Of a stretch of 38,064 nt of DNA, positions 2,214 to 28,042 are shown in pieces; the first letter of the stretch is position 1; each line of letters begins with the position of its first letter. The position numbers and the translations under genes were made by a program. The notes under the pieces are model-generated. The model had not been told where the DNA came from, did not search any database, and was given only the letters and a program-made list of their open reading frames with translations. Source of the DNA: a virus (Duplodnaviria; Heunggongvirae; Uroviricota; Caudoviricetes); the IMG/VR virus record IMGVR_UViG_2526164598_000023. One strand, given 5' to 3'.

Positions 2214-3367
2214 GCTCTTACGATGTAATTAAATGCAACGTTGCGAGGGCGAGTTTCTGTACCTACATTTCCACTAATTTCACCAAACCGTCTTACATTA
2301 CGAGAGCTAATGGCTCGTAGTGAGGAAGGCACCTTTAAACCGGGTTCGTCTGTTTTAACTATTCCCCCGTCCCCGTATGTAGCCAGTATTCCAGGGTTTA
2401 CTCCTTCCCGTGTGCTTCCCGTGGCAAGTCCATCCCCGGTCCATAATTCCATATAGTGTGCATGATCCAAAATTGTGTGTGGCTGCCAATTAAGCAAAGC
2501 GCGGCCAGCATCCACCCCGCGCCCATCATCCCAGCCGCGAATAAATTCTCCCCGTAAATCCGGTAATTTATTGGCGGGGTAGGCCTTTGCCAGATTGGGG
2601 TACATTTCAGAAGAAAATGCTGCACCGTTACATTTCAGCCACCCCGTTGGCGGCGTGGCTGAAGGCCATGGAACGGGCACACCAACGGGCAGCGCCGAGC
2701 CTTCCCCTAAACCAAGGTAATTGAGGACTTCTTTTATACTGCCCATAGCGATAATAGCGCGACCAATAGCTGTAAGGGTTGTCAGTGCTGCGCGGTCTGC
2801 TCCGGTAAAATAAGGCAACCGATCTGCTGCAGTGGCAAGTCCTGCCAGAGCAGTGAGCGTGGCATCTGCCGGTTGTTTTCCGTTTGCCAGATCGTATGCA
2901 GCCTTGACCGCTTTCGGTGTGGCGGCCAGTATTTCAGACGTGCTGTTGATGTCACTGCTCAATTGTACGGTGCCTTTTGCCGTCAGCGAGGCAGCAGGCA
3001 CTCCCGTTATCTGACTCCACGGGTGAGTATGGCTGACGGGGGCCTTGCCGGCAGCCAGGTCATATGCAGCCTTGACGGCCTTTGGTGTGGCGGCCAGCGT
3101 TTCAGAGGTGCTGTTGGTGGCACTGCTCAGTTGGGTGAACCCCTTAGCTGTCAGTGTCGCGTCCGGGTGGTTACGGGAACGTACGTGTTCAGCCAGTGAC
3201 TGTGCGGCTTCCTCCGTTTTTTTCTTCAGCCATTTCGTCCTGTTTGCCAGTTGCCGGGGGGCTCGATTTGATATCCCGTCTGCACCACCCAGAACCGGAT
3301 CTGATGTCTCCAGTTGATAGATATTTTCTTCCCACTTTTCTGTTTCATTCAGGTTTCCCATAATCAA
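2207..3367 (-). CDS. Tail fibre protein (Mu S / P2 H-like), constant N-terminal part fused to cassette V1, 386 aa
   Basis: Contains P2 H-like repeats (HPDATLTAKGFTQLSSATNSTSETLAATPKAVKAAYDLA) and QPADATLTALAGLATAADRLPYFTG, then the conserved cassette block, and ends ETRPRNVAFNYIVRAA. Confidence 0.9.
   Translation of the reverse strand: MIMGNLNETEKWEENIYQLETSDPVLGGADGISNRAPRQLANRTKWLKKKTEEAAQSLAEHVRSRNHPDATLTAKGFTQLSSATNSTSETLAATPKAVKAAYDLAAGKAPVSHTHPWSQITGVPAASLTAKGTVQLSSDINSTSEILAATPKAVKAAYDLANGKQPADATLTALAGLATAADRLPYFTGADRAALTTLTAIGRAIIAMGSIKEVLNYLGLGEGSALPVGVPVPWPSATPPTGWLKCNGAAFSSEMYPNLAKAYPANKLPDLRGEFIRGWDDGRGVDAGRALLNWQPHTILDHAHYMELWTGDGLATGSTREGVNPGILATYGDGGIVKTDEPGLKVPSSLRAISSRNVRRFGEISGNVGTETRPRNVAFNYIVRAA
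2702..2727. other. hix/gix-like recombination site 3, at the constant/variable junction of the expressed fibre
   Basis: Plus strand TTCCCCTAAACC-AA-GGTAATTGAGGA. The central AAACCAAGGT is identical to the remembered hixL centre. Encodes ...LNYLGLGE. Confidence 0.6.
2885..3163 (-). repeat. Two tandem repeat units of about 108 nt inside the tail fibre gene, period 171 nt (57 codons)
   Basis: 2891-2950 and 3058-3120 are about 85% identical. They encode the two LTAKG..QLSS..NSTSE.LAATPKAVKAAYDLA units. Confidence 0.7.
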
Positions 3368-3942
3368 CTGCTCCCGTGGTTATAACTGCCATCATGGATG
3401 GCGGTATTGTTATAGCGAATGGCCACAGACTGATACTCCAGGCTGGCCAGATGGCAGCGGGCCGGTGCAAATGCAGCCAGCGTCTGACGCAGCATCGCGG
3501 CCTGATCGTTAGTAATGGGCTGTTTCAGAATAACGCGATAAACTGCCCAGGCGGCTGCATCTCCATGAACAAACAGTCCGTTATAGCTGCGATTGCCGTC
3601 GTAACTGAGACGACCTGTGCCTTCAATCAGATCCACTTCACCAAAGCCAAAACGGCGGATAACTTCCCGGATTGACCACGGCGTCCCTTTATACCGGTGC
3701 AGTTCGATGGCTGCTTTTATAAGCATGCGGCGAACATCGTCCGATTCCGCCAGCTCCCAGCCATCGCCAGACAGTGAGAACTGCTCGCCCAGCCATGGCA
3801 GCGCGGAACTGTCGACGATATCGACGAGAAAGACCATCAGTACGCTCAGGTCGATGTTATCCAGCCGTCCTGCCAGTCTTCCCAGCGTCCTGAGACTGAT
3901 ATCACCCTCAAGCGGTGGCGGGAGTTGTAATGGCTCAGTCAT
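3364..3942 (-). CDS. Tail/baseplate protein, P2 gpI / Mu gp48-like, 192 aa
   Basis: Located between baseplate J and the tail fibre; family assigned from position and remembered similarity. Confidence 0.6.
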   Translation of the reverse strand: MTEPLQLPPPLEGDISLRTLGRLAGRLDNIDLSVLMVFLVDIVDSSALPWLGEQFSLSGDGWELAESDDVRRMLIKAAIELHRYKGTPWSIREVIRRFGFGEVDLIEGTGRLSYDGNRSYNGLFVHGDAAAWAVYRVILKQPITNDQAAMLRQTLAAFAPARCHLASLEYQSVAIRYNNTAIHDGSYNHGSS

Positions 3943-5038
3943 CAGACACTCCAGTCATGTTAAGAGTGATTGCCGTACAGTTTGCCCATTCGTTTTCTGC
4001 CACCACCCGCAGTGCCGGTGTCACCAGTTCAACCTGGTACACCCCGGAAACGGACAATGCACTGATAATCTGGCTGGGGACAATATCGCGCCCCAGCGTG
4101 GCGGCACGTGATGCCACCCAGTTCTGTATGGCGCTGTTAGCGGCATCTTTTACAGACCTGGCATCCTGATCACGATAGATCGTAATCTTGGCTTCAATGG
4201 TGTAATCCACCTTCACTGGTGTTTTAGCCCGCACTGTATCAGTGAGTGGCCTGACTTTCTCATCAGAGCAGAAACTCTCTACCAGCGTGAGAACACCGCC
4301 GTCCGGCAGACCGGTACTGAGCAGCGGATACAGATCTACGGTCCCGGGAACCGGGGAAAGCACAGCAACATCGACAATGTTGGGATGGGCCTGCATGGCA
4401 TGAAAGCGGTATGCGCCACGGCTTCCGGCATTGGTGAATGACTCCGGGGCCAGCCTGATACGCTCCCGGAGCCTGTCATCGTCTTCCTGTTCTGAACCGC
4501 CGGAACTGGCCGTCAGATTGCTCACCAGCAGGTCGACGTTATCAATCTCATCGAGTAACTGACTGACCTGCGCAGGTTGCCAGCCGTTACCAGCGGTACC
4601 GGGTTCGGTACAGGTGGACGTGACATTGACCAGCAGCAATCCGGCCTTCAGTACCACATCTGTATCGGTGGCAAAAATAACGCTGTCGGAAGCGCTGACG
4701 CGGGTGCCTGCCGGGATCAGCACATCAATGGCCAGTGCCTCATCTACGGAGAACTGGAGCGTGGTAGTGGCAGGCTGCGCGGCAAGACGGTATACACCGA
4801 CCAGTTCACCGAGGTAATCAATCATCGGCTCACGGGCAAAGGCGACCAGATTCTGCTTTGCTGCCTCCTGTACCGCAACCCTGACCAGCATTTCGCGATA
4901 GGCCCACAGATCAATCAGCAGACGTTCTGCCTGTGCCGGGTACAGCGTTTTGCCGGTATCCGCTTCATACTTCGCAATCATTTCTGCCGTGATTTTGTCG
5001 GCATCGCGTTCAATAAAATCGGGTTCTGTCAGCGCCAT
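3935..5038 (-). CDS. Baseplate protein J-like (Mu gp47 / P2 gpJ), 367 aa
   Basis: Size and position between gpW-like and gpI-like genes; start overlaps the upstream gene end. Confidence 0.7.
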   Translation of the reverse strand: MALTEPDFIERDADKITAEMIAKYEADTGKTLYPAQAERLLIDLWAYREMLVRVAVQEAAKQNLVAFAREPMIDYLGELVGVYRLAAQPATTTLQFSVDEALAIDVLIPAGTRVSASDSVIFATDTDVVLKAGLLLVNVTSTCTEPGTAGNGWQPAQVSQLLDEIDNVDLLVSNLTASSGGSEQEDDDRLRERIRLAPESFTNAGSRGAYRFHAMQAHPNIVDVAVLSPVPGTVDLYPLLSTGLPDGGVLTLVESFCSDEKVRPLTDTVRAKTPVKVDYTIEAKITIYRDQDARSVKDAANSAIQNWVASRAATLGRDIVPSQIISALSVSGVYQVELVTPALRVVAENEWANCTAITLNMTGVSDD

Positions 5039-18856: not shown

Positions 18857-20333
18857 GCAGACGCCCCCAGATATTTGTCACAAAGAGAATGCGGGCCAGC
18901 CGCTCCTGCAGATCGTCCGTGTTCATCTGAGGGTAGAGCTCCGCCAGTTCGCCCAGCAGCTCAGACGGGTTAACCCCATTTTCGACCCGCCTGAACAGAG
19001 GTGCCAGGACGGGTTCCAGCGTGCCATTTAACGCGCCTCCGTTCATCAGAATGTCCAGCGCGTCGTCAAGCTGCTGCTGAGCCTGAATATCAGCATCAAT
19101 CGCCTCGGCAAATGACAGCGGCAGCATGTTATTCTGTCGTTCCGACGGTGGTGTCTCGTCAATATCGCCGTCCTGCAGTTGGTACTCACGCTTGAAGTAC
19201 TGCGGGGTCAGACGCAGACCCGCCCGGGTGAGTTTTTCGTCGCGGGTGGCACGGGTGTCATCAATGGCCTCCTGTTCCCACATGGCCCAGACCGGACACG
19301 GCACATCGCCGAAGTTCAGGGTGACCACCGTTCTGATGACCTGATTCACTGCCGCCTGAATGATGTCCGCATCCGCATCGCGGATATCAGCCGTTACCTC
19401 CAGCCCGGCCTGTGCAGAGGCCTTGTTACTGTTCGCTTCCGTGGTCTGATTCTGACCGAGTAATGCAATGGAGATCTCACTGCGTGACAGTGTGATCAGC
19501 TCGCGGAATACCTCGCTGCTGTCCGCCTTACCATCCGCGGCTTTGAGTTCGATGCTGCTGTCATCGGGGATGGCGGCCACCGCGTCCTCCACCATCTGCT
19601 CCATGGAGTCCAGCAGTTTTTCAATCTCTGCATCATTTGCACCCCTCGGGTGCTTACCGATCACCCACGGGGAGCCAAACTTTTCGGCAAAGCGGAGCCA
19701 GAATTTCATCCCGCCTTTCTTGAAGGCGACCGGCCAGAAGCACATGGACAGGTCCGGGAAACCGTAAGGATTGTCATACGAGGCATCCTGTGCCGGCACC
19801 ACGAATTTTGACGGTGACAGCAGCTCACCCTCCACACCCGCATCACGCGCCCGGAAGCGCAGGCAGTTGTCCGTATCAAACTGAAACCACTCAGGCGGTT
19901 TGCCGACAATATCCGTCACCGCCCACGACCTGACCGAACGGCCCCACATGATTTCACAGGGCTGATACCCGTAGAGCACGGCATCGCTCATTTCACCGAT
20001 GATGCGGGACAGATCCAGATCGTCGAGCATGTCGCGGATGAAACGGAAGACCCGGGCAGAGGCGTGACCACGCTCCAGTCCACGCTCCAGCGATTTAAGC
20101 GCTGCTTTACGTCTGCGGATACAGCCCCCGACCAGCGGGTCGGTGCGCAGTTCGCGGTAGATACGGATATCCCGTCCCTGAGCCTTGAGAATGGGATCAG
20201 GATTGGGCAGATACATGCCCAGTCCGTAAAAGTCGATCGCGCGGCTGCGGGAGGCAATCTGCGCGGTCAGTGATTTCTGAGGCTCAGAAAAAGCAACAAA
20301 TTCATCGGGTGAAACCCAGATACCCCTCGCCAT
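18837..20333 (-). CDS. Portal protein (Mu gp29-like), 498 aa
   Basis: Size and position immediately after the terminase large subunit. Confidence 0.7.
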   Translation of the reverse strand: MARGIWVSPDEFVAFSEPQKSLTAQIASRSRAIDFYGLGMYLPNPDPILKAQGRDIRIYRELRTDPLVGGCIRRRKAALKSLERGLERGHASARVFRFIRDMLDDLDLSRIIGEMSDAVLYGYQPCEIMWGRSVRSWAVTDIVGKPPEWFQFDTDNCLRFRARDAGVEGELLSPSKFVVPAQDASYDNPYGFPDLSMCFWPVAFKKGGMKFWLRFAEKFGSPWVIGKHPRGANDAEIEKLLDSMEQMVEDAVAAIPDDSSIELKAADGKADSSEVFRELITLSRSEISIALLGQNQTTEANSNKASAQAGLEVTADIRDADADIIQAAVNQVIRTVVTLNFGDVPCPVWAMWEQEAIDDTRATRDEKLTRAGLRLTPQYFKREYQLQDGDIDETPPSERQNNMLPLSFAEAIDADIQAQQQLDDALDILMNGGALNGTLEPVLAPLFRRVENGVNPSELLGELAELYPQMNTDDLQERLARILFVTNIWGRLHERDNG

Positions 20334-21928
20334 CAGAATCCCTCCAGCATACGGGCCGCCTGACGACGACGGCGTGAGCTTGCCTTCACCGGCCCTTTGT
20401 TAATTTCACGGCTGGCGAAATACGCCAGCGCCAGTGCGATGGCTGAATCCCCGTGGCGTTTACCACCGTCAGCCTTTGCTTTTGAGCGTTGCTCCGGTAC
20501 GCGGGGGACACCGTTCACCACCTGAACGGCCCGCAGGTCATCCAGTGTGTCTTCATCCTTTGGTAAGTCCACCAGGTTACCGTCTTCCAGTGCAGCTTTG
20601 ACCGGAGGCATATGCTCCCGGTACCAGCCTTCGGTTGGCATCACCTGCTGAACCCGGCTGGAGCCGTAGCGCTGCATGGCGTATTCAGCCAGATAGGCAC
20701 CATTACCACGGGCATCAAACGCTGCACCCAGCAGACCGGGCAGGCCATCCATCAGATACCAGGTGATTTGCTCCTGCTGTCTGAACGGCACGTTACGCAG
20801 CTCCAGTACGAATGGCACGCGTCGTACCAGGTTCTTCTCCTGCAGCAGGGGATAGTCCACCGACAAATCACCGCTACGGCCAAAGTCGCGCCCCAGGAAA
20901 GAGCGGGCATCAGTGGGGAGTGCCTCCAGCAAGGGTTTCAGATACTCATCAAGCCAGTCCTGCGTCTCGCGGAAGCGAACCTCATCAGACAGCAGTTCAT
21001 AACCTTCCTTGCAGGTCAGACGCAATACCGGCGTATCAGCGGACATGCGGGACTCTATCAGGGCACGGGACAGCCAGGCACCGCCACCGTTGGCCGGAAT
21101 ACAGTCAAGCTCTTCGGATGCGCCGGCACCGTAGAATTTGTACACCGATGCCATCCAGGCCTGCTCGGATGCCTCCGACCATTCCTTCCCGGTGCGCAGA
21201 CAGACGCGCCGGAACAGCCCCTCAGATACGGCTTCCCGGAAAGTGATGCGATGTATGCTGCCTCCCTGACGTCCGGCACGGATATCCCCGATAAGCGTAT
21301 TGAACGGATTGTCGTCACCGTTATGGGTGGAGATAACGCGTACCTTTCCCCCCCAGATAAGCATCGCCAGCGCCGCTTTCAGCAGTTCGTCCAGTTGCTC
21401 ATGGAACGCCGCTTCGTCGATAACAATAATACCCTGACGGCCACGCAGGTTAGACGGGCGGCTGGAGAGCGCAACAATACGAAAGCCGGAGTCAGGAAAT
21501 TTGATGGTGTAAGTCCTGATGTGTTTGTCGTCGTCGTCCTCTTCCCAGAATCCTTCTTCAATTTCACTGGCCGCATAGTTGAATGCCCGTGCCCACATCG
21601 CACACGCCTGAATGTATTCGACGGTCATGTCCTGGTTATAAGCGATGTAATACACATTCATCCCGCCTGCTGGCGCAGAAGAGGCGGCGGTCAGTACGTT
21701 ATCGGATGCCTCAGCCCATGTAATACCGGTACGACGGCTCTTTTCTATCACCTTAAGCGGAGAGGTGTCTGCCACCCAGCGCTGCTGGTAAGGCAACAGA
21801 ACGGGAGGGGCATCCAGCGCCGAGGTATCAGGCAAAACGGGAGCAAGGTTATTCCTCCCGTCCATGGGACTCATCCCTTCGGGGCCGCCGCCAGCGGCGT
21901 TTAAAATCACTCCGGATGATTTTGTCAT
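20333..21928 (-). CDS. Terminase large subunit (Mu gp28-like), 531 aa
   Basis: Walker-B-like GIIVIDEAAFH and C-terminal nuclease-like region; start overlaps the upstream gene by 4 nt. Confidence 0.75.
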   Translation of the reverse strand: MTKSSGVILNAAGGGPEGMSPMDGRNNLAPVLPDTSALDAPPVLLPYQQRWVADTSPLKVIEKSRRTGITWAEASDNVLTAASSAPAGGMNVYYIAYNQDMTVEYIQACAMWARAFNYAASEIEEGFWEEDDDDKHIRTYTIKFPDSGFRIVALSSRPSNLRGRQGIIVIDEAAFHEQLDELLKAALAMLIWGGKVRVISTHNGDDNPFNTLIGDIRAGRQGGSIHRITFREAVSEGLFRRVCLRTGKEWSEASEQAWMASVYKFYGAGASEELDCIPANGGGAWLSRALIESRMSADTPVLRLTCKEGYELLSDEVRFRETQDWLDEYLKPLLEALPTDARSFLGRDFGRSGDLSVDYPLLQEKNLVRRVPFVLELRNVPFRQQEQITWYLMDGLPGLLGAAFDARGNGAYLAEYAMQRYGSSRVQQVMPTEGWYREHMPPVKAALEDGNLVDLPKDEDTLDDLRAVQVVNGVPRVPEQRSKAKADGGKRHGDSAIALALAYFASREINKGPVKASSRRRRQAARMLEGF

Positions 21929-22470
21929 GTGGCAATCCCCAGAATCTCGCGACGAAGCGCCTGTACTGCGTCGCTTGACAGTCCCCCCTTACGGGCAATT
22001 TTCTCGGCGTTGCTGGCTGCCTGCTGCGCTCTGGCCCGTACTTCAGACTGGAACTTTTTGAGGTTGACGGACGCGCGGGACAGCGTAGCCACATTCTTCG
22101 CCACCTTCGACAGCAGGGCCACGCGTTCTTTAGGATCGACTTCACCTTCTTCCGCCTCCTGCAACTGGACAATACTCTCGAACAGCTCGGTCTGAATAAG
22201 GGCTATCACAGCCTCCGAACGCGCATCCTGATCGTCTGCTGCGCCTTCGGTCAGCATGCGGGCCGCTTCTGTTGCCGCACGGATAGCACCATAGCGGCGC
22301 TCAATCTTCTGTCCATAGCGATGGATAGCGGATTTGCTGATGACGTACCCCCGCTCACGCAGCAGGGACTCCAGCTCGTTATACCCGCTGAAGCCGGATT
22401 CAGTCAGCGCCCGTTCAAGCCAGCGGCGCACGTCTTCCGGCAGCTTTTCTATTGTGCTGCGTCTGGCCAT
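21925..22470 (-). CDS. Putative terminase small subunit-like DNA-binding protein (Mu gp27-like), 181 aa
   Basis: N-terminal HTH-like region, coiled-coil C-terminus; directly upstream of the terminase. Confidence 0.5.
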   Translation of the reverse strand: MARRSTIEKLPEDVRRWLERALTESGFSGYNELESLLRERGYVISKSAIHRYGQKIERRYGAIRAATEAARMLTEGAADDQDARSEAVIALIQTELFESIVQLQEAEEGEVDPKERVALLSKVAKNVATLSRASVNLKKFQSEVRARAQQAASNAEKIARKGGLSSDAVQALRREILGIAT

Positions 22471-22781
22471 TATTCACTCCAGTACTTTTCCGGGCGGGCA
22501 ATACCCGGACCACATTCCACGGTGTATTCCACCAGGTCTACGCCGAGGCGGGTCAGGTCAGCAAACCAGTCGCCAGAAGGTTTTTTCTCCAGCTCAACCA
22601 TTTTACGGTCAGCCAGATAATCCAGTTCGCGGCGCAGTTCCAGCGGTGTGGTGTCCGGGTAGATGGCGCGGGACACGTCCAGCAGCAACGTTTCACTGGC
22701 GGTGTAAGGGCGGGTTTTGTTCAGGGCAACCAGCAAACTCCAGCGCAGGGATTCGCGGCGTACCCGGGTAATATCGACCAT
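22470..22781 (-). CDS. Hypothetical protein, 103 aa (Mu gp26 position)
   Basis: ORF with start/stop coupling to neighbours. Confidence 0.45.
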   Translation of the reverse strand: MVDITRVRRESLRWSLLVALNKTRPYTASETLLLDVSRAIYPDTTPLELRRELDYLADRKMVELEKKPSGDWFADLTRLGVDLVEYTVECGPGIARPEKYWSE

Positions 22782-23107
22782 TATTGACCTCCGGTATTGC
22801 GGTACTGCTGTACCACTTCCAGTTTGTTATAAAGCGCGTCCAGTTTGGCCTCGATGACTGTCTGGCCACGGATATAATCCTCGCGACGGACATAATTCAG
22901 CGGTAAATCCGCTTTAAATCGCATAAATTCTTTTTCCAGCTCGCCCCAGTTGGAGGCGGACTGTTGCAGGGCCTGTTCAAGGGAGGCGAATCGTGCCGCC
23001 TGGCGTTCTTCTGTTTTACTGAACAACCATTTGGCGAGCCCTCCCACAAACCCCATGAAGGTGAGCAGAAAACTCACCACCGTCCAGAATTCAACCTGCA
23101 GTGTCAT
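22781..23107 (-). CDS. Small membrane protein with N-terminal TM helix, 108 aa (candidate releasin-like lysis accessory)
   Basis: TM helix FWTVVSFLLTFMGFVGGLAKWLF followed by a coiled-coil-like region; last gene of the lysis cluster. Confidence 0.45.
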   Translation of the reverse strand: MTLQVEFWTVVSFLLTFMGFVGGLAKWLFSKTEERQAARFASLEQALQQSASNWGELEKEFMRFKADLPLNYVRREDYIRGQTVIEAKLDALYNKLEVVQQYRNTGGQ

Positions 23108-23754
23108 TTCTGTAATCCTTCCCGTTCATCCAGTAACGCGTTTATCTGGTTCCGCCAGCGACGACATTGTCCTGCGTTGTCGATGATGTTGGCGAGAACG
23201 TCACGCTGGGAGACACCCGAATCGCGTAACCGGGTGTCAGTGGTTTCAGGTTGCCCGGTCGCTGTGCCAGAGCGGGTGCCAGCGGCGGCAACTGAGTCTG
23301 AATGACCGGTGTCGACGGATGCGTTGTCATATCCGAGTGCGGCGTTGTACTGGCGCACGAAACCGCGAGTAAACACGCACTCAATGGGATGGCTCTTACC
23401 TTTTTCATCAATCCAGCGCTGTGTGACATCGTTAATTTGCCCCTGTAGTTGTTTGTTCCGGCTCTCCAGTTGAGCAATCTGCTCAAGATAACCGGCTTCA
23501 GCCCGCTGCCCGGCGGCCACCTGCTCCTGATACCGTCTGGCCCAGGCCCGCAGCGCAGCATTCTCAAGCGTTGCCTGCTCCGTTTTGTACGCGTCAAATG
23601 CTGACTGCAACTGACTGAGCGCGGTATCACCGTCACGCTTTGCAGAGTCATGACCACTTCTGTATCCCATGGCATACAGGCCGACCAGAAAGGCATTGAT
23701 AAGAATGGCCAGCAGAATGCCGCGCCACGGCAGCTTTTTAACCAGATGCCGCAC
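23104..23754 (-). CDS. i-spanin-like protein (start uncertain; GTG at 23752-23754 proposed)
   Basis: N-terminal TM (ILLAILINAFLVGLYAMGY) then a long coiled-coil-like periplasmic domain. The track start at 23856 would overlap the endolysin gene by about 118 nt. Confidence 0.5.
   Translation of the reverse strand: MRHLVKKLPWRGILLAILINAFLVGLYAMGYRSGHDSAKRDGDTALSQLQSAFDAYKTEQATLENAALRAWARRYQEQVAAGQRAEAGYLEQIAQLESRNKQLQGQINDVTQRWIDEKGKSHPIECVFTRGFVRQYNAALGYDNASVDTGHSDSVAAAGTRSGTATGQPETTDTRLRDSGVSQRDVLANIIDNAGQCRRWRNQINALLDEREGLQK
23142..23408 (-). CDS. o-spanin-like lipoprotein nested in another frame inside the i-spanin gene, 88 aa
   Basis: ATG at 23406-23408; MKKVRAIPLSACLLAVSC has a signal peptide and lipobox-like LAVSC, followed by a Pro-rich mature region. 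Confidence 0.55.
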   Translation of the reverse strand: MKKVRAIPLSACLLAVSCASTTPHSDMTTHPSTPVIQTQLPPLAPALAQRPGNLKPLTPGYAIRVSPSVTFSPTSSTTQDNVVAGGTR

Positions 23755-24472
23755 AACTGCTGCCTCCCCATGTGAGATATCGCGGTGCCAGTTCGCGCAG
23801 GATGCGCTGCGGATAATGGCGGTTCTCCCGCCAGCTGGCCGCATTGCGTCCGGCATTCACCGTGGCGACATGTCCGAACCAGCGGGTGCTGTCCAGACCT
23901 TTCTGTGATGCAAGCCGCCTGTCCCGTTGTACCCAGCCCAGACCACCGTTATAGCCCGACAGTGTCATGGCCATACGCTCGCAGTCACTGGCGGCGCTGA
24001 CACGCTGCCACAGCCAGCGGTCATAGCTGACCAGCGCCCGGATAGCCCATGCCGGATTAAACGGCTCACGACTGCTCAGCATCGGTATCAACTGGCTTAT
24101 CCAGTCGGCAGTGGCAGGCATGAACTGCGCCAGTCCCTGAGCGCCAGCCGGCGAGATCGCATCAGGTCGCCAGCCGCTTTCCTGATGCAGTTGCGCGGCG
24201 AAATCGGCCACCGGCGCAGACAGTCCCCATTCAAGCCGGGCATTACGGATCACATCATCGCGATACTGCAGCGCAGCCTGCGGGGGCTGCGCTGCGCATG
24301 CCTGGCTGAAAAAGCCGCCACACCAGAGCAGCCAGACAATCACCAGGTTGCCAGCAAGCTGCCACCAGAAGCTGTATTTATCGTTACGTGGTTCTCCGTG
24401 TCTGATGGCGGTTACGCCCAGACCAAAGGCGAACAGAATAATGAGGGTGATTTGAGGCCAGTTCATGGTCAC
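23738..24472 (-). CDS. Lytic transglycosylase (SLT domain) endolysin with N-terminal membrane anchor, 244 aa
   Basis: Two N-terminal hydrophobic helices followed by an SLT-type catalytic region with QLHQESGW and AQGLAQFMPATA. Confidence 0.8.
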   Translation of the reverse strand: MTMNWPQITLIILFAFGLGVTAIRHGEPRNDKYSFWWQLAGNLVIVWLLWCGGFFSQACAAQPPQAALQYRDDVIRNARLEWGLSAPVADFAAQLHQESGWRPDAISPAGAQGLAQFMPATADWISQLIPMLSSREPFNPAWAIRALVSYDRWLWQRVSAASDCERMAMTLSGYNGGLGWVQRDRRLASQKGLDSTRWFGHVATVNAGRNAASWRENRHYPQRILRELAPRYLTWGGSSCAASG

Positions 24473-24819
24473 AGTCCTGTTGCCACAGCCAGGCAGACCG
24501 CTGCAACAATCAGTGCACGGCGGATTAACGCAGCAGAAAACACCAGGTGAAGGCCGGTCTGTACCGGGAAACGCCCTTCAGCCATCAGCCTGTCGTCATG
24601 TTTCAGGTACTGACCGGGACGGGCTTTGGGGAAGAGCGAACGGTCAAGCCAGTAACCCAGCACTGCTGCCAGCGTGATAAGTGCCAGCTTGTAGATCACA
24701 ACAGGCAACTGCTGTGGCGAGACCAGAGCGATGATGCCCAGCAACAGCACTGAGGTCAGCAGCCAGCCGCTGAGGCGAGGTTTTTTAACAGGGGGAATGA
24801 ATTTTTTCAGGTTTTTCAT
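24469..24819 (-). CDS. Putative holin, three predicted TM segments, 116 aa
   Basis: Start placed at ATG 24817-24819 (MKNLKKF...) with AGGAG RBS; the stop overlaps the endolysin start by 4 nt. Confidence 0.4.
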   Translation of the reverse strand: MKNLKKFIPPVKKPRLSGWLLTSVLLLGIIALVSPQQLPVVIYKLALITLAAVLGYWLDRSLFPKARPGQYLKHDDRLMAEGRFPVQTGLHLVFSAALIRRALIVAAVCLAVATGL

Positions 24820-24933
24820 GTGTGTCTCCTCGTTTGGTGGAGACAGCATCACAAATGTGGCGGGATACGGATTTTAAACAGCGTTAATAGTGAAGATGTA
24901 AACGTGCACTGCATGATGACTTTGAAAGAACGA

Positions 24934-24961
24934 CCAGCCCGGTACCCGAACACCGGGCTGG
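24934..24961 (-). terminator. GC-rich stem-loop (10-bp stem, 8-nt loop), possible insulator/terminator upstream of the late operon
   Basis: CCAGCCCGGT-acccgaac-ACCGGGCTGG; on the minus strand it is followed by TCGTTCTTTC. Confidence 0.3.
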
Positions 24962-25007
24962 CCATCGCCCCACAGGAATGCGCTGTGAGCCGACCGAGGT
25001 TCAGTCA

Positions 25008-25019
25008 GTCTCGCGAGAC
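25008..25019. promoter_or_regulatory. Perfect 12-bp palindrome GTCTCGCGAGAC upstream of the methyltransferase gene
   Basis: Self-complementary 12-mer about 48 nt upstream of the ATG at 25067; TATAAT hexamer at 25042-25047. Confidence 0.25.
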
Positions 25020-25066
25020 CAGACTAGCCTGCCATATTTTTTATAATTGTAAAAGGCTTACAGATT

Positions 25067-25837
25067 ATGAAAATGCAGACATTACCCATCGTTCCATGGA
25101 TTGGTGGCAAACGCCGCCTTGCAAAACACATCCTGCCGCTGTTTCCGGCGCATGAATGTTATGTGGAGCCGTTTTGTGGGGCAGCAGCGCTCTATTTTCT
25201 TAAGGTACCCGGCAAGATCGAAGTCATTAATGATATCAACGGTGAACTGGTGAACCTGTATCGGGTGGTAAAACATCATCTGGAAGAATTTGTACGCCAG
25301 TTCAAATGGGCGCTGGTCAGCCGGCAGATCTACAAATGGCTGCAGATCACCCCGGAAGAAACACTGACGGATATCCAGCGTGCAGCACGGTTCTACTACC
25401 TTCAGAAGCAGGCGTTTGGAGGCAAGGTGGCGGAGCACAGCTTTGGTACCTCCACCATATCCCCGCCACGCTTCAACCTGCTGCGTATTGAAGAAGAACT
25501 GTCAGCGGCACACCTGCGGCTTTCCAGAACGGTCATAGAACACATGGACTGGCAACAGTGCATAGAACGATATGATCGCCCGCATACGTTGTTCTACTGT
25601 GACCCTCCATACTGGGGAACGGAAGGTTATGGTGTGGAGTTCGGACTAGAAAATTATGATCATATGGCAGATTTAGCACGCAGGATCAAAGGGAAGATGA
25701 TTATATCGGTGAACGATATCCCGGAAATGCGGCAGGCATTCAACGGTCTAAATATTCAGTCGGTTGATATCAGCTACAACCTCAAGATCACTGGCAAATC
25801 CAGTCGCAAGAAGGAACTCATTATCCTCAACTTTTGA
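25067..25837 (+). CDS. N6-adenine DNA methyltransferase, Dam-like, orphan (no adjacent restriction endonuclease), 256 aa
   Basis: AdoMet motif EPFCGAAALYF near the N-terminus and catalytic DPPY (YCDPPYWGTEGYG). Confidence 0.85.
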   Translation: MKMQTLPIVPWIGGKRRLAKHILPLFPAHECYVEPFCGAAALYFLKVPGKIEVINDINGELVNLYRVVKHHLEEFVRQFKWALVSRQIYKWLQITPEETLTDIQRAARFYYLQKQAFGGKVAEHSFGTSTISPPRFNLLRIEEELSAAHLRLSRTVIEHMDWQQCIERYDRPHTLFYCDPPYWGTEGYGVEFGLENYDHMADLARRIKGKMIISVNDIPEMRQAFNGLNIQSVDISYNLKITGKSSRKKELIILNF

Positions 25838-27032
25838 CCGAATAGTAAGACTTCATGCAGTGAATCAAGTACTGCATGAAGTCAAGGGCTGGTTTTGTGT
25901 ACCAAAAATAAACAGTGATAGCGGTAATAATTCCCATAACTAGAACACCACGTATAATCCAGAACGTACGTTTCTGCGTGTCTAGTCGCGCAGAAATACT
26001 GCTAAATACACCAGCCACGTCATCTTTAATGAAGGAATATTCCTTATTAATCTGTTTTTCTTTGTATTCAATTTCTTCGCCTAAGGCCTTTATAGATTGC
26101 ATCTGGTTCGAAAGTGCCAGCCAGATTAACGTTGCAGCAAAAATGCATCCCAGAAGAATTATTGTGTTTGTTATCCCTTGGCCTGACCATTTCGTAGCCA
26201 CTTTGAATTGGGTAGCTACGATAACAGAGGCAACAGGAATGCCAAGTATATGGTTCTGGATATCTGAAAACGCTTTGTGGATTTTACCCATTTCTTCGAC
26301 TTTTGCAGCACGCAGTTGATCCATTACTTTGTCATAAGAGAATCCAGAAGAGTAGATACGATACCCTTTCAGAAACTTTTCATGCAGACGCTGAATATTG
26401 TCCAGTAAATAAGCGAATACTAGAGGTGAATCAATTCCATCACTAACTGCTTGGATACTTTCAATCAGAATATCTAGCTTCTGATCCTTATGGGTATCAT
26501 CATTGAAACAAGCTATAAGGTTATCAAGATACTCTCTTTGCAAATTTTGTACATTTTCTGCAGCGAAGTGCGGTAATAGCTTGATAACTTCTTTTTTCAG
26601 AAAAACTAACTGACAAGTTGAGTTATCAAAGTAGGCCGCGGCCTCTTTTAGCAGGTTAACGAACTCGAGAATCTTCCGGTAGTTGCTGATGAAAACGGGG
26701 ATATCTTCATCATCATTACGAAACTTTGTTTCTAGGATGAAGTAATTAGCTGGCTCAAGGCACTGATGCTTTGGAGCATTTAGCAATTTTTCATGGGTGG
26801 AAAACACAAGTCCCAGTCCACTCCGTGGTGACGTCACACGTAGGATGATCGTGTTACCTGGAGCGATAGTGCCTGTATCAATAGAAAGACCATATTCACG
26901 AGGATCATCAAGCAAAGTATCAACCAGATCACAATCGGACTGATCTAAGAGCAACAGCGAACCGACACGAAACCCCTCTTGGAATTCCATACGACGATAC
27001 AGATCTGTCAGCATCTCAAATGAAATCGCCAC
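25827..27032 (-). CDS. Membrane protein with soluble N-terminal domain and two C-terminal TM helices, 401 aa
   Basis: GTG start at 27030-27032 two nt after the upstream stop, with a GAGG RBS (alternative ATG at 27014). TM helices ITNTIILLGCIFAATLIWLALS and FWIIRGVLVMGIITAITVYFWY; AT-rich codon usage. Confidence 0.65.
   Translation of the reverse strand: MAISFEMLTDLYRRMEFQEGFRVGSLLLLDQSDCDLVDTLLDDPREYGLSIDTGTIAPGNTIILRVTSPRSGLGLVFSTHEKLLNAPKHQCLEPANYFILETKFRNDDEDIPVFISNYRKILEFVNLLKEAAAYFDNSTCQLVFLKKEVIKLLPHFAAENVQNLQREYLDNLIACFNDDTHKDQKLDILIESIQAVSDGIDSPLVFAYLLDNIQRLHEKFLKGYRIYSSGFSYDKVMDQLRAAKVEEMGKIHKAFSDIQNHILGIPVASVIVATQFKVATKWSGQGITNTIILLGCIFAATLIWLALSNQMQSIKALGEEIEYKEKQINKEYSFIKDDVAGVFSSISARLDTQKRTFWIIRGVLVMGIITAITVYFWYTKPALDFMQYLIHCMKSYYSVKS
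25849..25883. repeat. Perfect 13-bp inverted repeat with 9-nt spacer
   Basis: GACTTCATGCAGT-gaatcaagt-ACTGCATGAAGTC, 12 nt past the methyltransferase stop and inside the last codons of the convergent 401-aa gene, at the boundary where composition becomes AT-rich. Confidence 0.7.
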
Positions 27033-27034
27033 GA

Positions 27035-28042
27035 TTAAACCTCAGTCATCCACATTTCCCTAAATTCTTCAGGTACATTACGTAGGGTGATAATATTTGT
27101 TTCCGGATCATAATCAATATAGCCTTCAGTTTTCCCTTCCCGGTCAAACTTAAGTTCCCAATATTTAGACTTGCCTTTAAAAGATACCAGAGCCCGAATG
27201 ACTCGACCATCAGGAACGAAGCCATCCGATAACTCCAACTCTTCAGCAGCAAGTTTACCAGATAACTCCTCGGGAGCCTGGGGCCAAATGGCATTAACAA
27301 GGGTTTCAAGACTAAGTGGTTCACCAGCCTTACTTAGTGCATGTAAGTGTTCAAACGCACTCTTAAGAAATGCATCTTTTTCAGCGCCGTCAAGTCCTTT
27401 CTCTGCCGCAAATGCTTTTAAAACGTCACGTAACTTTTCAGACTCTCGTTTGGCGATTAAGACATCATTACAGCCGAGGAACTGTTTAAAATAGTTTGAA
27501 ACATTACCTTGCCCCTTAAGAAAACTGATATAGCGCTCTGCGCCACTTTCCCACGCGGTTAAGTCAATGCGCCCAGCCATACGCAGCTTAGCAATATCAA
27601 GATAGGTACTATCTTGGATGTTAAAATCATCTGTGACAGTGGATCCAATGGTAGCGCTTACAATAGCTATCAACAGGTGTTCATTGTGTCCTATCACGAT
27701 ATTTGCAAAAAGAACATAACCACCAGTAGCCATGTTTTCTCGCTGAGAACGTTCCGTCAGGTGATGCATCATTCGGCAGGAACTTTGGTAGAAATCATCA
27801 ACACCTTCGAGAAAGTCCCCAGCCATTCGTTCCATAGGATAGTTATCCGTATCGCCTTCAAAATAGCCATAACCTTTACCTGTGCGTCCTGCATATTTTG
27901 CACAAATATCGTTTATAAGGCGCTGGGAGGCTTCAGTAACTAGACCTTCTTCAGGACTCAATCTCTCAGAAGCGTCTCCATTTTGTTGTTTGTCTAAAAT
28001 GTGAACTACAACGTGTTTAACTTCAATGGTCTGCTCAGACAT
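27035..28042 (-). CDS. NdpA/YejK-like nucleoid-associated protein homologue, 335 aa
   Basis: Segments GGYVLFANI..HLLIAIVS, YLDIAKLRMAGRIDLTAWESGAERYISFLKGQ and the C-terminal YIDYDPETNIITLRNVP resemble E. coli YejK as I remember it; same length (335 aa). ATG 28040-28042 with AAGGTGGA RBS. Confidence 0.65.
   Translation of the reverse strand: MSEQTIEVKHVVVHILDKQQNGDASERLSPEEGLVTEASQRLINDICAKYAGRTGKGYGYFEGDTDNYPMERMAGDFLEGVDDFYQSSCRMMHHLTERSQRENMATGGYVLFANIVIGHNEHLLIAIVSATIGSTVTDDFNIQDSTYLDIAKLRMAGRIDLTAWESGAERYISFLKGQGNVSNYFKQFLGCNDVLIAKRESEKLRDVLKAFAAEKGLDGAEKDAFLKSAFEHLHALSKAGEPLSLETLVNAIWPQAPEELSGKLAAEELELSDGFVPDGRVIRALVSFKGKSKYWELKFDREGKTEGYIDYDPETNIITLRNVPEEFREMWMTEV

Follow-up and report, generated by a model that had tools for sequence, protein, structure and literature searches.

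An endolysin fused to a two-transmembrane phage protein and probably exported by Sec in the lysis cassette of a BcepMu-like prophage of Escherichia coli

We analysed a stretch of 38,064 nucleotides (virus record IMGVR_UViG_2526164598_000023, Caudoviricetes), in the following called the window. Its positions 22781-24819 encode, on the minus strand, a holin, an endolysin with an SLT domain, a spanin pair and a small membrane protein, p108. The two N-terminal helices of the endolysin are, judged by sequence, a fused copy of a widespread and normally stand-alone phage protein (phrog_5479) of 53-60 amino acids (aa) with two transmembrane (TM) segments. The interpretation that we favour, with moderate confidence, is that this endolysin is exported through Sec, processed by signal peptidase and timed by the holin. 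The gene identities, the synteny, the fusion, the conserved motif at its junction and the predicted topology are direct results of the analysis. A sequence-only reading of the same DNA had described a lysis cassette around an exported, membrane-inserted SLT enzyme with two N-terminal hydrophobic helices, preceded by a holin-like protein with three TM segments. The three features which it had named lie where it placed them, and family matches and predicted topology bear this description out: the helices span residues 3-21 and 33-53, and the preceding protein is a Holin_2-3 holin with three hydrophobic segments. The endolysin and its parts are as follows.

23738..24466, minus strand: endolysin precursor, two-TM module plus family-1 lytic transglycosylase (SLT); 242 aa, 27.1 kDa; Pfam SLT PF01464, E=1.7e-14; phrog_669 'endolysin', E=1e-70
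24308..24466, minus strand: captured two-TM module, endolysin residues 1-53; phrog_5479, E=8.6e-14 over residues 3-56
24293..24301, minus strand: A56-C57-A58, conserved motif of the signal-peptidase-I type (-3,-1); MAFFT alignment columns, 84 unique homologues
23741..24292, minus strand: predicted mature periplasmic SLT domain, residues 59-242, 20.5 kDa; profile alignment to Slt70, invariant columns
24179..24181, minus strand: predicted catalytic Glu96; QES motif aligned to Slt70

The N-terminus of the endolysin starts with a WPQ motif and continues with TM1, a basic loop (RHGEPRNDKYS, residues 22-32) and TM2, which ends with LLWCGGFF. The matching family, phrog_5479, has 53 residues and no known function. 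A phmmer search with the 64 N-terminal residues against 1.84 billion representative proteins gave 487 matches. Among the best 150 of these, 119 were stand-alone proteins of at most 65 aa, 24 were tandem duplicates and only three were longer than 130 aa. The stand-alone proteins mostly have 53-62 aa and end at GGFF, and the pattern common to the family is WPQI, TM1, (K/R)HG(E/Q)P(K/R)..Y(S/N)F, TM2 and LLWxGGFF. The tandem duplications, about one in six of the best matches (P0267, P0270, P0272, P0278, P0280 and others), are 103-123 aa long and have four TM helices in two WPQ...GGFF units; a protein of 277 aa (P0313) carries two module units followed by a further TM helix and a long coiled coil.

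The module is thus found fused as well as free. Conservation of the fused form extends, down to 64% identity, over E. coli, Salmonella, Pectobacterium, Dickeya, Serratia, Pantoea and Arsenophonus. In the B3-like Pseudomonas phages JBD25 and JBD67, the module is a separate open reading frame (ORF) of 52 aa between the holin and the SLT gene, which ends with ...VWWGGFFG-stop and overlaps the start of the SLT gene (ATGA coupling). BcepMu does not have the two-TM module; its endolysin BcepMu22 begins with a single signal-like segment. Elsewhere, the stand-alone module is encoded in early or replication regions and not near lysis genes (FoX5, Mica, Rhizobium phage RHph_TM3_3_14B and two metagenomic contigs, where it stands beside AAA_24/DUF669/DNA polymerase III beta or beside an integrase). 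The N-terminus of the enterobacterial endolysin appears to have been recruited from this large free-standing family and joined to the enzyme at a conserved signal-peptidase motif. In the literature searched, which excluded the original BcepMu paper (Summer et al. 2004), we found neither a prior description of the two-TM extension nor one of BcepMu22 as a SAR (signal-anchor-release) endolysin; a preprint on a UPEC endolysin deals with an unrelated phage. The small two-TM phage proteins with this pattern (WPQ...HGxP...GGFF) form a large uncharacterised family, which would here have been taken over as an export module.

A very abundant E. coli variant (P0177, P0182 and P0187; about 1,100 clustered sequences) retains MNWPQITWIV and ...LWCGGFFSQARAAQPP around a wholly different middle, SLKLAFEAFRVFIRTERLSVRAGTFLVHMARVFFVAM. 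This suggests recombination or frame changes within the N-terminal module.

The catalytic part of the endolysin scores 53.8 bits on PF01464 against a cut-off of 21.3 and has the features of a family-1 lytic transglycosylase: its profile aligns to residues 466-560 of E. coli Slt70, and the QES, GLAQFMP and AYNGG motifs are conserved. Glu96 is the likely catalytic residue, because the QES motif falls on the Slt70 segment that holds the catalytic Glu; it is invariant in 34 homologues. Cys162 and Cys238 are also invariant, which fits a periplasmic protein. The catalytic part is 55% identical to BcepMu22. The protein is WP_001104429.1 in RefSeq and would have 244 aa if started at the GTG at 24472. 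None of its first 75 codons is an internal start preceded by a Shine-Dalgarno sequence, hence the fusion of the two-TM module with the SLT domain is a real product. A cytoplasmic SLT enzyme made from an internal start was ruled out: the only in-frame GTGs, V42 and V72, have no Shine-Dalgarno sequence, and the fused frame is conserved across the Enterobacterales. Disulfide caging of the P1 Lyz type through Cys49 in TM2 was likewise considered and found unsupported, with a Cys in only 66 of 84 sequences and at a freely varying position in the stand-alone family.

Export and processing are suggested above all by the junction between module and enzyme. It was examined in the alignment of the 84 homologues, which was made without anchoring on the motif. 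Position -3 is Ala in 76 sequences (Ser in five, Val in two, Ile in one) and position -1 is Ala in 81 (Ser in two, His in one), whereas nine different residues (N, R, H, D, S, C and others; entropy 2.5 bits) occur at position -2. Positions +1 to +4 read A-(Q/E)-P-P. By sequence, this A-x-A|A(Q/E)PP junction is the classic -3/-1 rule for signal peptidase I. The substitutions at -3 (Ala to Ser, Val or Ile) and at -1 (Ala to Ser) are all tolerated by this enzyme, the single His at -1 being the sole exception. The other sequence features of a signal peptidase I substrate are present as well: the basic loop can serve as n-region and TM2 as h-region, position +1 is Ala, and prolines stand only at +3 and +4. 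The predicted cut lies between A58 and A59. An AlphaFold2 (AF2) model of the full endolysin had a mean pLDDT (predicted local distance difference test) of 58, and only its secondary-structure string was used, with caution; in it, the helix ends at residue 49 and residues 50-62 are coil (low confidence).

Homologues fuse other signals to the catalytic domain at the identical junction, namely a Leu-rich Sec signal (...GASGSDA|AQPP), a lipobox (LLSGC) and an unrelated two-TM segment (...KSHA|AEPP). In BcepMu22 the junction reads MRVLIAFVVALLGAAAPVAA|QVP. The KS10 lysin, a homologue of BcepMu22, has a SignalP-predicted cleaved signal according to its authors (PMC2628397), and what had been taken for a SAR domain in T4 RI turned out to be a cleavable signal peptide (PMC8385771). 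We consider it somewhat more likely than not on these grounds that a cut between A58 and A59 releases a soluble enzyme of 20.5 kDa and leaves a membrane peptide of 6.7 kDa. The sequence-only reading had found the cassette to fit a SAR endolysin and had itself named a cleavable signal peptide as the finding that would speak against this; with the A-x-A motif and the Sec and lipobox homologues such a peptide is indicated, at the level of sequence signatures only.

The SLT endolysins of JBD25 (3398..4027) and JBD67 (2987..3616) begin with MKRLLTLGLLGLLSAC-QPA, which fits a lipoprotein signal with a lipobox (LLSAC). In the literature, this endolysin family is described as carrying a SAR domain. 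Judged by the lipobox, the two enzymes may be lipid-anchored.

The topology of the module was inspected across 81 different fused N-termini and 118 stand-alone versions. Their interhelical loop has on average 2.5-2.7 Lys and Arg residues and a net charge of +1.0 to +1.4, and the N-terminal tail is neutral. According to the positive-inside rule, the hairpin is thus predicted to be inserted with the N-terminus out, the loop in and the C-terminus out, which places the catalytic domain in the periplasm. Both endolysin helices have a Kyte-Doolittle mean of 1.8 and a Gly/Ala/Ser/Thr fraction of 0.32. The SAR domain of Mu gp22, which has been validated by experiment, reaches 1.06 and 0.53, and the annotated SAR endolysin of Mica 1.23 and 0.53. 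The endolysin does not have the single, weakly hydrophobic, Gly/Ala/Ser/Thr-rich TM segment of a SAR domain, and by these sequence measures a SAR-like nature of its helices is not supported. SAR-style escape would also require the basic loop, with about three basic residues, to cross the bilayer. Two lysines on the cytoplasmic side are enough to make Mu gp22 rely on a helper (PMC9239132).

Several points weigh against export with cleavage. The hydrophobic stretch ahead of the motif measures 21 residues (about 17 of them helical in the low-confidence model), a length more often seen in signal anchors that are not cleaved. Alternatively, AAQPP could be conserved because the mature domain needs it for its structure. 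A transglycosylase that is freely secreted from the onset of late transcription poses a timing problem, to which a holin-dependent solution is inferred by analogy. Related Pseudomonas SLT endolysins have been classed as SAR endolysins by Chamblee et al. 2022 (PMC9239132).

The first alternative is that the N-terminal helices tether an inactive SAR endolysin which escapes from the membrane upon depolarisation by the holin, with p108 acting as releasin in the way Mu gp25 acts with gp22. We regard this as unlikely. p108 and its surroundings comprise the following features.

24469..24819, minus strand: holin, 116 aa; Pfam Holin_2-3 PF13272, E=6.3e-41; phrog_1528 'holin', E=4e-54
23104..23754, minus strand: i-spanin (Rz-like), 216 aa; phrog_1403 Rz-like spanin, E=1.5e-91
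23142..23408, minus strand: o-spanin (Rz1-like) lipoprotein ORF, embedded in the i-spanin gene in another frame, 88 aa; lipobox; 38% identity to BcepMu24
22781..23107, minus strand: p108, 108 aa; phrog_462, E=1.6e-36
22470..22781, minus strand: gp26-like protein (context, not a lysis gene), 103 aa; phrog_436, E=7e-42
21925..22470, minus strand: TerS of the Mu gp27 type, 181 aa; Pfam Phage_Mu_Gp27, E=1.3e-56
20333..21928, minus strand: TerL, 531 aa

Position and architecture of p108 favour the SAR alternative. In the order SLT, i-/o-spanin, p108, phrog_436 and Phage_Mu_Gp27, the gene lies within five genes downstream of the endolysin and directly upstream of the gp26 and gp27 (TerS) homologues, which is the exact position of gp25. 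Mu gp26 falls in phrog_436 as well (E=7e-43). Hydropathy shows one N-terminal TM segment in p108 (residues 7-25) with an acidic residue before it (E6) and basic residues after it (K26, K31, R35, R39), and the AF2 model is a single continuous helix over residues 7-104 (pLDDT 84). The predicted layout, an N-out/C-in TM segment and a cytoplasmic helix of about 80 aa, is that of the releasin gp25. The SLT endolysins of Pseudomonas Mu-like siphophages are described as SAR endolysins paired with type II DUF2730 proteins (Chamblee et al., PMC9239132), and Mu gp25 also aids SAR endolysins unrelated to its own (PMC9239132). The p108-family member Mushu gp22 has a faint match to phrog_736 (E=0.0033), the group of Mu gp25.

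Homology searches point in the other direction. None of 22 family members, p108 and 21 relatives, matched PF10805 (DUF2730) even at E<=10, whereas the controls did (Mu gp25, E=2.5e-13; the JBD25 protein, E=4.6e-9). Comparison of the p108 and gp25 families with hhalign gave a probability of 2.3%, or 5% with a broader set that included Gram-positive members and -mact 0.05. The two proteins belong to different PHROGs, p108 to phrog_462 together with BcepMu25 and Mu gp25 to phrog_736, and a Foldseek search of BFVD with the AF2 model of p108 found no match. The p108 family has 877 homologues with the invariant motif DLP..YVRREDYIRGQ.VIEAKLD. By sequence, p108 is hence a positional and architectural analogue of the releasin and not a member of the DUF2730 family. 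The label 'lipoprotein' that phrog_462 carries in PHROGs and in several phage records is wrong for p108, which does not contain any cysteine.

The phages JBD25 and JBD67 bear on both sides of the question. Their holins (99%), two-TM proteins (92%) and SLT endolysins (98%) are nearly identical, yet the gp25 position is occupied by a DUF2730 protein in JBD25 and by a p108-type protein in JBD67. However, the difference is a block swap in which the gp26-like gene is also replaced (26% identity). p108 is thereby tied to the packaging module no less than to lysis. Members of the p108 family also occur in the Gram-positive Mu-like phages BalMu-1 and FP_Mushu, with the motif DLPxxYV(T/R)R(D/E)DYIR and directly upstream of the gp26-like and TerS genes; the 5.2 kb examined in BalMu-1 has no annotated endolysin gene. 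DUF2730 proteins are also found with non-SAR endolysins (Chamblee et al., PMC9239132), and if the endolysin is cleaved, no releasin is needed.

Together with the two strongly hydrophobic helices in place of one weak helix, the basic loop that would have to cross the membrane, the conserved A-x-A motif and the interchangeable Sec or lipoprotein signals of homologues, these findings tell against a SAR endolysin with p108 as releasin. Of the proposal made by the sequence-only reading, the gp25-like position and architecture of the partner stand; the SAR-like helices and the kinship with DUF2730 do not. That reading had also let the lysis cluster end with p108. The protein is present, but the spanin pair had been missed, p108 does not adjoin the endolysin gene, and the operon continues unbroken into the gp26-like, TerS and TerL genes.

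The gp25 position in Mu-like phages appears to be filled by at least two unrelated families, of which we found no description in the literature searched (again exclusive of the original BcepMu paper). The Mu releasin paradigm may thus not transfer to BcepMu-type phages, and JBD25 and JBD67, one with a DUF2730 protein and the other with a phrog_462 protein, offer a clean experimental handle on the function of the proteins at this position. More generally, the label 'SAR endolysin' is easily given on hydrophobicity alone; here, ordinary secretion and processing are suggested by the A-x-A motif, by the swappable signals of the Sec and lipoprotein types and by the hairpin.

The long h-region raises a second alternative, in which the endolysin stays permanently in the inner membrane. 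The enzyme would be held about 10 residues from the membrane surface with the cell wall out of reach, and would become effective once holin lesions or spanins collapse the envelope geometry, or would act locally while tethered. Both helices are as hydrophobic as stable TM segments, the WxGGFF at the end of TM2 is conserved in fused and free forms alike, and homologues with a lipobox (JBD25, P0253) would likewise remain attached to the membrane after processing. Permanent anchoring leaves unexplained, however, why only small residues occur at -3 and -1 while -2 is free, and the occurrence in homologues of a typical cleavable Sec signal at this very junction implies a functional soluble mature enzyme. 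A tethered enzyme with a linker of only about 10 residues would also be poorly placed to reach peptidoglycan. We consider this alternative rather improbable.

A third possibility is that the module itself regulates lysis, as an antiholin or a partner of the holin, and that its fusion to the endolysin serves a 1:1 ratio, export being secondary. The free protein of 52 aa in B3-like Pseudomonas phages, encoded between holin and endolysin and ATGA-coupled, would suit such a role, and a cut at the A-x-A site, if made, would yield the same free peptide. Yet the stand-alone family otherwise resides in early or replication regions far from lysis genes, BcepMu manages wholly without the module, and other homologues substitute unrelated signals for it. 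A regulatory module in this sense is very improbable.

For the preferred interpretation, export by Sec followed by processing, the course of events would be the following. The late operon of the BcepMu-like prophage produces five lysis-related products together: holin, endolysin precursor, the two spanins and p108. The hairpin of the precursor would insert into the inner membrane with TM2 as internal export signal and, as topology and family suggest, carry the catalytic domain into the periplasm. A cut by signal peptidase I after TM2, at the conserved motif, would free the SLT domain, and the residual two-TM peptide of 6.7 kDa would stay in the membrane as the equivalent of the free-standing protein of the B3-like Pseudomonas phages. 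At a set time, the Holin_2-3 holin would permeabilise or depolarise the inner membrane. By analogy with systems that secrete their endolysin, lethal degradation of the wall would be timed by this collapse of the membrane potential and not by a SAR-type escape of the helices. The embedded pair of i-spanin and o-spanin would then break the outer membrane. p108, as a membrane-tethered cytoplasmic helical protein, may modulate lysis.

A more far-reaching view, which we put forward as tentative and rather doubtful, is that the enterobacterial BcepMu-type endolysin is a natural 'polyprotein', in which a free-living two-TM protein was joined in frame to an SLT enzyme, its second helix also serving as a cleavable internal signal peptide, and in which a single translation product gives rise to both a soluble periplasmic endolysin and a functional 6.7-kDa membrane peptide, and that phrog_462 represents a second, sequence-unrelated class of gp25-like membrane proteins with lysis or late functions across Gram-negative and Gram-positive hosts.

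The holin is assigned by family as a putative membrane-permeabilising protein. It scores 139 bits on PF13272 against a cut-off of 27, and its hydrophobic segments lie at about residues 18-36, 41-62 and 90-116. Its gene, the first of the late operon, is located directly upstream of the endolysin gene, and its stop codon overlaps the GTG at 24472, 2 nt ahead of the endolysin ATG. The start at the ATG at 24819 is preceded by GAGGAG and agrees with the start of the Pfam and PHROG profiles; on these grounds the 116-aa form was preferred to a longer ORF from the GTG at 24852 (127 aa).

The i-spanin is predicted to have an N-terminal TM helix (residues 7-32 in the 216-aa form), followed by a coiled-coil domain in the periplasm. 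The first 17 nt of its gene are shared with the end of the endolysin gene, its stop overlaps the start of p108 (ATGA), and RefSeq lists it as 'lysis system spanin subunit' (WP_001216263.1). The o-spanin ORF lies wholly inside the i-spanin gene; as read from the sequence, it encodes the lipobox MKKVRAIPLSACLLAVSC, i. e. a signal sequence with LLAVSC and Cys18, and is proline-rich. It shares the motif P(L/M)TP..PGYA with BcepMu24, which is annotated 'Rz1, out of frame, embedded proline-rich protein'. A TM/coiled-coil i-spanin with a lipoprotein ORF inside its gene in another frame is the arrangement of an embedded two-component spanin (Rz/Rz1). The o-spanin ORF is unannotated both in RefSeq for the identical E. 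coli prophage and in the record of Klebsiella phage KP12, which labels the i-spanin gene 'putative lipoprotein'.

Between 20.3 and 24.9 kb every real gene of the window is on the minus strand, with overlapping or nearly abutting reading frames. The cassette genes are annotated in RefSeq in E. coli DLI.5a with 100% identity and have hundreds to thousands of homologues each, hence the ORFs are not due to chance. By sequence, the segment opens the late operon of a BcepMu-like transposable prophage of E. coli, because gene order and families match BcepMu and the window also contains genes for a transposase, a MuB-like protein, Gam and a repressor. A scan of 22300-25200 for consensus promoters and terminators found matches at chance level only, as expected for an activator-dependent late operon.

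E. coli DLI.5a has a chromosomal prophage that matches the 2.6-kb segment with 100% identity; other relatives are Escherichia phage PhiKM (97.7%) and Klebsiella phage KP12 (89%). The cassette was found in 638 of 5,426 complete E. coli genomes. With about one in eight of these genomes and many Salmonella, Pectobacterium, Dickeya and Serratia prophages carrying it, its lysis mechanism is the exit route of a very common group of temperate phages. In some E. coli genomes it is present in two or three copies (at most three places per genome), and one copy is plasmid-borne. KP12 has an additional hypothetical gene of 188 aa (4298..4864 of the KP12 stretch) between holin and methylase, which the window does not have; the taxonomy line of KP12 (Vequintavirinae) looks at odds with its Mu-like genome.

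Between the late operon and the repressor of the window lies an accessory block of low GC content (25067..28042; 40-47% versus about 57% in the phage) with three genes. The first, on the plus strand, encodes a Dam-like type II or orphan methyltransferase (PADLOC MTase_II, E=3.7e-115), the second a phrog_5023 protein of 401 aa with a weak C-terminal match to KwaA of Kiwa (E=8e-5), and the third a nucleoid-associated (NdpA-like) protein of 335 aa (phrog_3767). The block could be a moron or a defence island.

The type of cassette described here has been known since the description of BcepMu, and SAR and releasin biology is known from Mu. BcepMu genes 21-28 correspond to the genes of the window one for one in order, orientation and family: the cassette 21-25 comprises holin, SLT endolysin, Rz, an embedded Rz1 and gp25, a 'putative inner membrane protein', and is followed by gp26, TerS and TerL. 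The identities are 55% for the holin, 55% for the SLT enzyme, 30% for the i-spanin, 38% for the o-spanin, 50-52% for p108 and gp25, 56% for the gp26-like protein and 67% for TerS. The two endolysins differ at the N-terminus. BcepMu22 (203 aa) has one signal-like segment where the E. coli enzyme has the two-TM module of about 55 residues.

Phage Mu likewise has a late operon with an endolysin, spanins, a small cytoplasmic protein with an N-terminal TM segment, gp26 (phrog_436) and a gp27-type TerS. However, Mu has no holin, whereas the cassette in the window has one. The Mu endolysin gp22 is a muramidase whose single SAR helix is weakly hydrophobic and whose cytoplasmic tail is rich in Lys, whereas the enzyme in the window is an SLT protein with two strongly hydrophobic helices and the A-x-A motif (PMC9239132). 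Mu gp25 belongs to DUF2730/phrog_736 and p108 to phrog_462, with no detectable homology between them.

JBD25 and JBD67 share with the window the Holin_2-3 holin, the phrog_5479 two-TM protein, the SLT endolysin and an Rz-like spanin. In these phages the two-TM ORF is separate and the SLT enzyme has its own LLSAC-lipobox signal; in the window both parts form a single reading frame and the enzyme's own signal is gone. Lysis proteins exported by a Sec-type route, with a site of the AXA type behind a hydrophobic segment, also include Lys44 of Oenococcus phage fOg44, by prediction the lysin of Burkholderia phage KS10 (PMC2628397), and T4 RI (PMC8385771). Unlike these, the endolysin in the window has as its predicted signal the second helix of a two-TM hairpin that comes from an independent protein family.

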